DNA of 64,000 nt from an uncultured Sutterella sp. (GCA_905213905.1 CAJMKD010000007.1:4388-68387); one strand, 5' to 3'. Numbered from the stretch's first letter, positions 30,085 to 30,830 are shown. Numbers and translations: made by a program. Notes: a model not told the origin generated them from the letters alone.

Positions 30085-30468
30085 ATGAAGGAACTCTATG
30101 GATTCGGCTCGACCGATGGGCCGCGTGAGAAGCCCGTTGTGGCGCGCGTTCGGCCGACAGGCGCGGCCTCCGACAAGAAGCGGCGCCAGGCGCTTGAGCT
30201 CTTTGAGCGAGGGTTCGGCTACAAGGCGGTTGCCGACATGCTGACGCTTTCAGTCAACACCGTTCGCGACTGGTCCCGGCTGCATAAGCAGGGCCGTTTT
30301 TCGCCGAACATGAGCCGCAATCAGTACCGCTATACGGCAGAGACGAAGCAACTCGCGCTCGGGCTGCGCGAGCGGGGCTATTCCTGGCGGGAGATCGAGG
30401 CCGAGACGGGCGTCAATGCATCAACCTGCCGAGCCTGGGTTCGGGCGACTGCGGCGAAGGATCTCTGA
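30085..30468 (+). CDS. Small double-HTH DNA-binding protein (transposase N-terminal / terminase-gpP-like), probable mobile-element remnant
   Basis: 127 aa with two HTH-like segments (GFGYKAVADMLTLSVNTVRDW; GYSWREIEAETGVNASTCRAW); no transposase catalytic domain follows; adjacent AT-rich repeat island. Confidence 0.45.
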   Translation: MKELYGFGSTDGPREKPVVARVRPTGAASDKKRRQALELFERGFGYKAVADMLTLSVNTVRDWSRLHKQGRFSPNMSRNQYRYTAETKQLALGLRERGYSWREIEAETGVNASTCRAWVRATAAKDL

Positions 30469-30507
30469 CGCATGAAGCATGGCGACGGCGCGTTTAAAGC
30501 GAATAGT

Positions 30508-30593
30508 TATCATAAATTTATGATAAAAGTATGATAAATCTCGGCTCAGCGCCGGCCAAGTATCATAAATGTATGATACTTGTATGACAAATA
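30508..30593. repeat. AT-rich tandem repeat of two about 33-bp units, each containing the palindrome TATCATAAAT(T/G)TATGATA plus a third TATGA(T/C)A half-site
   Basis: Unit 1 at 30508-30539 (tatcataaatttatgataaaagtatgataaat); unit 2 at 30561-30593 (tatcataaatgtatgatacttgtatgacaaat); separated by a GC-rich 21-bp spacer; about 30% GC against a about 68% background. Confidence 0.6.
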
Positions 30594-30830
30594 AGCGAAT
30601 TTCCGCCAAGTTATTCATACTGATAAAGCGGAACGCCTGCATCAAGTCTTGAAGTGACAGGCGCCAAGGCATCAATCTGCCGCACCTGGGTTCTGGCAGC
30701 AGCGGCAGAGGATGTCAGAAGCATGACGGCGCAGATTTTTGAAATAGAAAAAGGCCGGCGGCATGAAACCGTCGGCCTTCGTCTTTCAGTGCGTCCGGGC
30801 AGGCGCGTCGGACGCAGCTGAAAGTCGTCA

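Follow-up and report, generated by a model that had tools for sequence, protein, structure and literature searches.

A lineage-specific insertion with a phased array of putative protein-binding sites at the 3' end of a double helix-turn-helix gene in Sutterella

We analysed a 64,000-nt stretch of DNA from an uncultured Sutterella species (hereafter the window), in which an AT-rich patch separates a gene coding for a small double helix-turn-helix (HTH) protein from a convergent operon with an orotate-phosphoribosyltransferase-like (PRTase) gene. We tentatively interpret this patch as a lineage-specific insertion-plus-duplication of about 250 nt at the 3' end of the HTH gene, the core of which would be a platform for cooperative binding of a protein at several sites. 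A left copy of the gene end (A), a unique core (X) and a right copy of the gene end (A') follow one another, and next comes a bidirectional terminator hairpin (30746-30784) common to the HTH gene and the PRTase operon (Table 1). The patch has this layout in the window, its site is empty in a sister lineage, and it occurs in a single copy in the window and in the sequence collections searched. The neighbouring genes within approximately 6 kb code for an RND pump, the autotransporter, the PRTase, an amidohydrolase, YgbA, an M20 peptidase and an MFS transporter.

Table 1. Features of the locus, numbered from the first nucleotide of the window
Feature	Position	Strand	Evidence and remarks
Autotransporter gene (1354 aa)	25888..29952	+	Pfam Autotransporter on the gene called in L001-L003 (identical to the window here)
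Hairpin CCCGTTCTCCG-N9-CGGGGAGCGGG followed by a T-run	30018..30058	+	Terminator scan; 36 nt 5' of the HTH start codon
Gene for the 127-aa double-HTH (paired-like) protein	30085..30468	+	HTH_23 matched twice
A, left duplication copy	30405..30503	+	Last 21 codons of the HTH gene and 35 nt downstream; 99 nt
X, unique inserted core (152 nt)	30504..30655	.	Absent from L022 and L010; no similarity elsewhere
R1	30508..30539	.	7-mers at 30508-14 (TATCATA), 30519-25 and 30530-36 (both TATGATA); 11-nt phase
R2	30561..30592	.	7-mers at 30561-67 (TATCATA), 30572-78 (TATGATA) and 30583-89 (TATGACA in the window)
A', right duplication copy (94 nt)	30656..30749	+	Decaying non-coding copy of the HTH 3' end
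Bidirectional terminator hairpin	30746..30784	.	Inverted repeat search; conserved in L022 and L010
Orotate-phosphoribosyltransferase-like (PRTase) gene	30831..31505	-	NCBIfam and Pfam; convergent downstream neighbour

The earlier note on this DNA described an island of about 230 bp with roughly 30% GC in a genome of about 68% GC. An AT-rich core is indeed present, with a smaller size and a milder contrast: it spans approximately 131 nt (30495-30625) at 33% GC, the surrounding segment 30470-30700 (231 nt) has 44.6% GC and the window as a whole 61.6%. No stretches of that length in the window are lower in GC than this core and the promoter region at ~32.6-32.8 kb. The latter, an AT-rich promoter region of the amidohydrolase-PRTase operon, harbours a 9-nt inverted repeat, TTTGTCGAT-N15-ATCGACAAA (32689-32721), a candidate operator that is unrelated to the repeats described below.

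The core contains two direct repeats of ~32 nt, R1 and R2, which are 84% identical. Two direct repeats of about 33 bp had been reported in the earlier note, and their occurrence is far beyond chance: an 18-mer pattern with up to three mismatches has six matches in the 64 kb, all at the array, against 0.00 expected from 100 shuffles. R1 opens with a perfect 18-nt palindrome, TATCATAAATTTATGATA. The arms of R2 are likewise perfect over 7 nt, and its centre is non-symmetric (TATCATA-AATG-TATGATA); the claim of a perfect palindrome in each repeat thus holds for R1 and for the arms of R2 only. The third half-site claimed for both repeats is there, as a TATGATA-type sequence 11 nt further on in each. 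The sequence GTATGATA is unique to the array within the 64 kb.

Altogether the array comprises six 7-mers (TATCATA or TATGATA) with 4-nt spacers. They form two clusters at a distance of 53 nt, and in each of these one 7-mer is inverted and two are direct; the linker between the clusters is 21 nt long. The 11-nt period was also called by Tandem Repeats Finder (TRF). Because 7-nt sites alternate with 4-nt spacers, the 11-nt phase would place the 7-mers on one face of the helix, with the two clusters five helical turns apart. Phased, same-face, whole-turn arrangements are typical of cooperative multi-site binding. The iteron-like layout put forward in the earlier note is therefore supported, as an iteron- or operator-like arrangement. 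The window carries a T-to-C change in the sixth 7-mer (TATGACA), where most strains have TATGATA. The resulting GTATGACA at 30582-30589 is a polymorphism present in only part of the window's lineage; GTATGATA occupies the sixth-site position in most strains and in a diverged haplotype, L025. A promoter scan also found four promoter-like hexamer-pair sites where 0.3 were expected. The outer 7-mers double as sigma-70-like pairs (TTATCA-17 nt-TATGAT) on both strands of R1 and on the minus strand of R2, and the plus-strand pair of R2 falls below the threshold of the scan.

The core is flanked by a long, diverged direct duplication. An ungapped match links 30405-30475 to 30656-30726, with 79% identity over 71 nt (blastn E=8e-12 against the window), and gapped alignment widens the duplication to 30405-30503 (A) and 30656-30749 (A'); a leftward extension beyond 30405/30656 was sought, and none was found. 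The left edge of A lies at the most conserved nucleotide block of the HTH gene family. A' still resembles the HTH protein (tblastn, 60% over 20 aa), and its reading frame, read from the aligned sequences, is not kept in L025, where it is 24% diverged. Two open reading frames across X and A', of 55 aa on the plus strand and 84 aa on the minus strand, were rejected as coding sequences since they are unconserved in L025 (indels, stop codon); neither X nor A' contains a conserved ORF, according to direct reading and the L025 comparison. Terminal inverted repeats are absent from X, as its ends, TTATCATAAATT... and ...AAGTCTTGAAGT, are by direct reading not mutual inverted copies. The earlier note had seen neither terminal inverted repeats nor target-site duplications by eye; the former are indeed lacking, whereas the diverged direct duplication of 94-99 nt had been missed.

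Human-gut metagenome contigs encode the exact HTH protein and share the gene order of the window, and all named relatives of the protein are from Sutterella. More than 20 contigs belong to the window's lineage, with 98-100% identity over the region, and all have the A-X-A' structure. One contig is variant: in L009 (816 nt, 1.3x coverage), 89 nt corresponding to 30542-30630 and including R2 are missing at its positions 501-511, which may represent a natural deletion variant or an assembly artefact.

The comparison with related strains proposed in the earlier note proved informative, as the patch is absent from both L022 and L010. In L022, whose HTH protein is 87-89% identical to that of the window, the same flanking genes and terminator are separated by 125 nt, with a single copy of the gene end and no AT-rich patch. 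L022 represents the empty site, so that the patch is an insertion relative to this sister lineage, and the terminator, also present at the empty site, is ancestral. In L010 and L011 (HTH protein 83% identical), similarity to the window ends at 30447 and restarts at 30743. A 4.2-kb island (6361-10595), with genes for a LysR regulator, an arylsulfotransferase and a transpeptidase/beta-lactamase-like protein, is inserted there in the last ~20 nt of the orthologous HTH gene. At the right-hand border of this island in L010, a second copy of the gene end was sought without a significant result (p=0.06-0.9). In L012 and L013, a second autotransporter gene replaces the PRTase gene after the island.

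We used L025, a diverged haplotype of the same locus and the sole independent comparison, to look for constraint on the array. Over the region aligned to 30085-32529 of the window, divergence is mosaic within this one short contig: fourfold degenerate sites differ from the window by 1.8% in the amidohydrolase gene, 17% in the PRTase gene and 21% (15/72) in the HTH gene. These values place a recombination breakpoint near the PRTase/amidohydrolase boundary in L025. For the HTH protein itself, 7 differences are found among 128 aligned positions (counting the stop codon). For the insert, we compared L025 with the majority haplotype, L047. The non-coding tail of A differs at 16 of 44 positions, A' at 22 of 92 and X outside the 7-mers at 32 of 113, i.e. 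the surrounding non-coding DNA of L025 is 24-36% diverged. In contrast, the six 7-mers are identical at all 42 positions, a significant difference from the rest of X given this one diverged haplotype (Fisher one-sided p=1e-5). The base rate agrees with this reading, as fourfold divergence in the block that contains the array is 0.17-0.21.

The changes in L025 occur in between the 7-mers, both in the 4-nt spacers and in the 21-nt linker, so the pattern cannot be due to a recent transfer of the block in its entirety. These comparisons point to a putative protein-binding array in which the six 7-mers appear to have been kept by selection. The constraint is not absolute, because the sixth 7-mer has undergone its T-to-C change in the window's lineage and R2 is missing in L009; R2 may thus be dispensable. 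The word 'remnant' in the earlier note fits poorly with six 7-mers that are unchanged while the non-coding DNA around them has drifted, which is unlike a decaying scar.

An unlikely explanation that must nonetheless be weighed is that of a functionless scar, in which attL and attR were joined by an internal deletion, A and A' correspond to the attachment core and the 7-mer clusters are former arm-type sites. It accounts well for direct repeats that duplicate a gene 3' end with the reading frame restored, for an insert with an empty site in a relative (L022), and for a left repeat edge that falls on the gene's most conserved block. AT-rich arms with two phased clusters of short repeats, moreover, resemble lambda-type attP arms. 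However, no gene for an integrase or recombinase is found in the element or within ~6 kb to its left or right, identity between the repeats is only 79%, and the 7-mers are conserved where a scar should decay. Furthermore, no product of A x A' excision occurs among 20 or more contigs, and the island inserted at the same point in L010 has no detectable flanking duplication.

The HTH gene next to the array encodes a 127-aa protein with two HTH_23 matches (8.7e-14) and no catalytic domain, as the earlier note had read it. The two HTH units are an internal repeat of each other (E=1e-5). The AF2 model comprises two three-helix units with a mean pLDDT of 77, and its best Foldseek matches are Cbp1, Pax5/6, SETMAR, Mos1 and Tc3, with probabilities of 0.98-1.0, E-values of ~1e-2 and low TM scores (0.30-0.38). 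The predicted fold of the protein is accordingly of the paired-like bipartite HTH type. A match to PDB entry 8vd6 ('CAP repeat') is uninformative, as this is presumably an engineered repeat protein, judging from its exact tandem repeats. The profile searches suggested in the earlier note retrieved HTH_23 twice and weak matches to transposase-type HTH families. The resemblance to IS630-type proteins noted there is right insofar as the DNA-binding domains of Tc1/mariner/IS630 transposases share the bipartite paired-like fold. The protein is not an IS630 transposase, though: it has no DDE_3 domain, scores 21.4 bits with transpos_IS630 against a cut-off of 100, and its BLASTP match to the local IS630 transposase is not significant (E=0.33). 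The profile search of the family returned 344 clusters at E<=1e-10. Some proteins, i.e. P0031 (773 aa), P0036 (1557 aa), P0034, P0038 and P0041, are poly-HTH proteins with 4-11 tandem copies of the double-HTH unit. The recognition helices are invariant across the family, and they are identical in the window and L025.

Far from being the 'orphan' of the earlier note, the HTH gene is a fixed partner of autotransporter genes. In all six independent Sutterella contexts (the locus shared by the window, L022 and L010, and those of L014, L018, L054, L059 and L063), it lies on the same strand as an autotransporter gene, 130-320 nt downstream of it. The pair thus looks like a conserved two-gene Sutterella module. 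As far as named members show, the HTH family is confined to Sutterella, and it is tied to autotransporter genes. The length of the autotransporter gene differs among strains: those accompanied by the same or a near-identical HTH protein encode 946, 1354, 1356 or 1487 residues, and the passenger domains are hypervariable. Module autotransporters of the P0214 group have 1351-1511 residues, and some are split into two ORFs (in the set L001, L003, L047-L053 and L059-L066). The literature search on Sutterella and autotransporters returned nothing relevant.

The downstream neighbours of the module differ in every context and are often accessory or mobile, which suggests that the 3' flank of module HTH genes accumulates foreign DNA. 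In S. faecalis (L018, 6433-12297), a GmrSD-type restriction gene and IS elements directly follow the HTH gene, and elsewhere Fic and DUF4143 ATPase genes are found at this place (L054, 5765-6757; L059, 5732-7384). No arrays or duplications were detected downstream of the HTH genes of other modules.

A further element of the module is a hairpin of the form CCCGTTYYYCG-N4-14-CGGRRRRCGGG followed by a T-run, 35-100 nt 5' of the HTH start codon. Of the six contexts, four contain a match to this pattern, with a single match at each locus; the window has one match where none was expected by chance. The hairpin occupies the same relative position in L010, L022, L059 and L063, and looser variants, visible in the alignment only, are found in L014, L018 and L054. 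The sequence at the base of its stem is conserved even where module HTH proteins are ~45% identical, and the only k-mers common to the modules are components of this hairpin. Since only ~36 nt part it from the HTH start codon in the window, expression of the HTH gene probably depends on read-through. The hairpin is terminator- or attenuator-like and could function as an attenuator or an operator. It represents a better candidate than the 7-mers for the common target of the HTH family.

These features bear on the idea that the array is the cis site of the adjacent HTH protein, which would act on its own 3' flank, for instance in regulation or in the recruitment of recombination. Its two similar HTH units, which a linker of ~16 aa connects in the manner of paired and Tc3 domains, would then sit on direct 7-mers one helical turn apart. 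The array begins 39 nt beyond the stop codon of the gene, the protein consists of two mutually similar HTH units in a paired-like bipartite fold, and such a domain should, by analogy with the complexes known for Pax, Tc3 and Mos1, be suited to direct 7-mers spaced at 11 nt. Moreover, both the recognition helices and the 7-mers are identical in the window and L025. Yet the helices are invariant across the family, and TATGATA and TATCATA are absent from all other modules examined. Orthologous proteins are encoded in L022 and L010, both devoid of the array, and it is the upstream hairpin, not the array, that co-occurs with the gene everywhere. We thus regard this explanation as rather unlikely.

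A more speculative and doubtful proposal treats the HTH 3' end of a Sutterella-specific three-part module (hypervariable autotransporter, conserved hairpin and HTH gene) as a recurrent, sequence-targeted insertion site for accessory DNA. A-X-A' would then be a miniature attachment or landing platform that is still functional, with the 7-mers as arm-type sites for a recombinase encoded elsewhere, and conservation of the 7-mers in the absence of an adjacent recombinase gene would follow from it.

It is quite improbable that the core derives from the maintenance region of a plasmid or phage, as a captured piece of, for example, an iteron origin or a parC-like centromere. Two phased 11-nt clusters in AT-rich DNA do resemble R1 parC and iteron origins, and the repeats themselves are present. 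Nevertheless, no rep or par gene is found nearby, blastn of the element against 72,556 plasmids and 50,697 phages revealed no similarity, and direct reading of the element disclosed no DnaA box.

The idea of a MITE or IS remnant, a non-autonomous transposable element set in motion by a transposase akin to the HTH protein, is largely refuted: the protein does have weak transposase-type HTH matches and IS630 elements do exist in related genomes, but the patch is a single-copy element in the window and in the collection scans, it has no terminal inverted repeats, it is bordered by a duplication of 94-99 nt instead of the 2-14-nt target duplication of IS or MITE insertions, and the HTH protein is not significantly similar to the local IS630 transposase. 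The suggestion of a mobile element in the earlier note is therefore not upheld for the IS/MITE type.

The copy number was determined in two ways, following a check proposed in the earlier note. A search of the 64-kb window with blastn and with the 18-mer (up to three mismatches) found no other copy. The pattern TATCATA-N4-TATGATA-N3-GTATGA was scanned in 185,579 species-representative genomes, IMG/VR and JGI metagenomes, and it retrieved only the same locus (L045) in addition to chance or unrelated matches. The latter, in Cytophagales, Saccharibacteria and coding regions, were discarded as their similarity does not extend beyond the motif. In the Cytophagales MAG JAAFJX01, six contigs matched the search pattern (L026, L029-L032 and L034); the match in L026 sits within tandem copies of GGCTATCATAC and has no relation to the Sutterella element. 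The source genome may contain further copies of the array beyond the 64-kb window.

We also considered structured RNAs and known DNA sites. Rfam revealed no family; the only hit, Thr_leader on the terminator, reached 24.8 bits where the gathering score is 55. The simplest explanation of the RNA fold z-scores (-5.4 and -4.4) lies in the palindromes and the terminator. Among known operators compared by eye (Fur, Zur, ArgR, NikR, PhoB, TorR, FNR/CRP and LexA) and among dif, the DnaA box, IHF sites and lambda operators, none fits both the half-site and the spacing. The Fur box (hexamers in 6-nt phase, or 7-1-7) comes close in its half-site, TGATAAT compared with TGATAAA here, but the arrangement in the array is a divergent 7-4-7 with an 11-nt phase. 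The arms and the 6-nt centre of dif (11-6-11) do not fit, and the 18-nt ARG box, TNTGAATWWWWATTCANW, matches at 12 of 18 positions with symmetric mismatches in its core. A literature search for the 7-mers yielded only the Aca7 operator, whose arrangement is different, i.e. convergent.

Taken with these alternatives, the sequence comparisons suggest that the insert is probably a working, putative protein-binding site rather than a dead or jumping element. Its origin would be a one-off recombination event, by a Campbell-type single crossover or a homology-anchored illegitimate integration, in which the incoming DNA brought its own copy of the gene end. A long duplication flanking a short foreign core is expected from a single crossover, and also from integrase-generated attL and attR sites after an internal deletion. 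The boundary would be recombination-prone because it closes a hypervariable autotransporter cassette. The second, independent insertion, in the last ~20 nt of the HTH gene of L010, and the conserved left edge of the duplication fit such a boundary.

As for function, the AT-rich core would not be inert in the binding-platform reading that we favour: a DNA-binding protein would bind it cooperatively at the six 7-mers, as these are phased on one face of the helix and have remained constant while the DNA around them drifted. The core could be an operator-controlled promoter or a roadblock between the two convergent transcription units, which we infer to be its most likely use. The location of the array between the 3' ends of convergent genes is unusual for an operator or promoter and counts against such a use.

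The patch is an uncharacterised example of a familiar kind of cis-element. With its 7-nt sites, 4-nt spacers and 11-nt period, the array resembles R1 parC, iteron origins and operators of the OmpR/PhoB type. It shares with such phased-repeat arrays the two clusters placed whole helical turns apart in AT-rich DNA; in R1 parC, repeat clusters flank a promoter. Unlike these systems, it is not accompanied by a par, rep or response-regulator gene, it is chromosomal and located between convergent 3' ends, its clusters mix one inverted with two direct sites, and it has no sequence match among the plasmid and phage records searched. Similarly, it recalls islands bordered by attL and attR: direct repeats flank the insert at a gene 3' end whose frame is restored, relatives have an empty site, the arms are AT-rich and the repeats clustered. 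In contrast with such islands, A and A' are only 152 nt apart and 79% identical, no integrase is encoded and the sites look selected. Finally, the 127-aa protein is similar to Pax, Tc3, Mos1, SETMAR, Sleeping Beauty and Sulfolobus Cbp1 in having three-helix HTH units joined by a linker. Unlike transposases of the Tc3/Mos1 type, it lacks a catalytic domain, and its structural matches as a whole have E-values of only around 1e-2 and TM scores of 0.30-0.38.

As a small indel at the strain level, the patch itself carries little weight for general biology. It indicates that a short foreign segment with a selected, putative binding array can become fixed between convergent genes. The module formed by the autotransporter, the hairpin and the HTH protein is a more interesting lead than the patch. 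Sutterella is a common genus of the human gut, and IgA degradation and inflammation have been associated with it. Should the HTH protein control these surface proteins or organise their exchange, the module would be relevant to how a commensal of the gut varies its surface.
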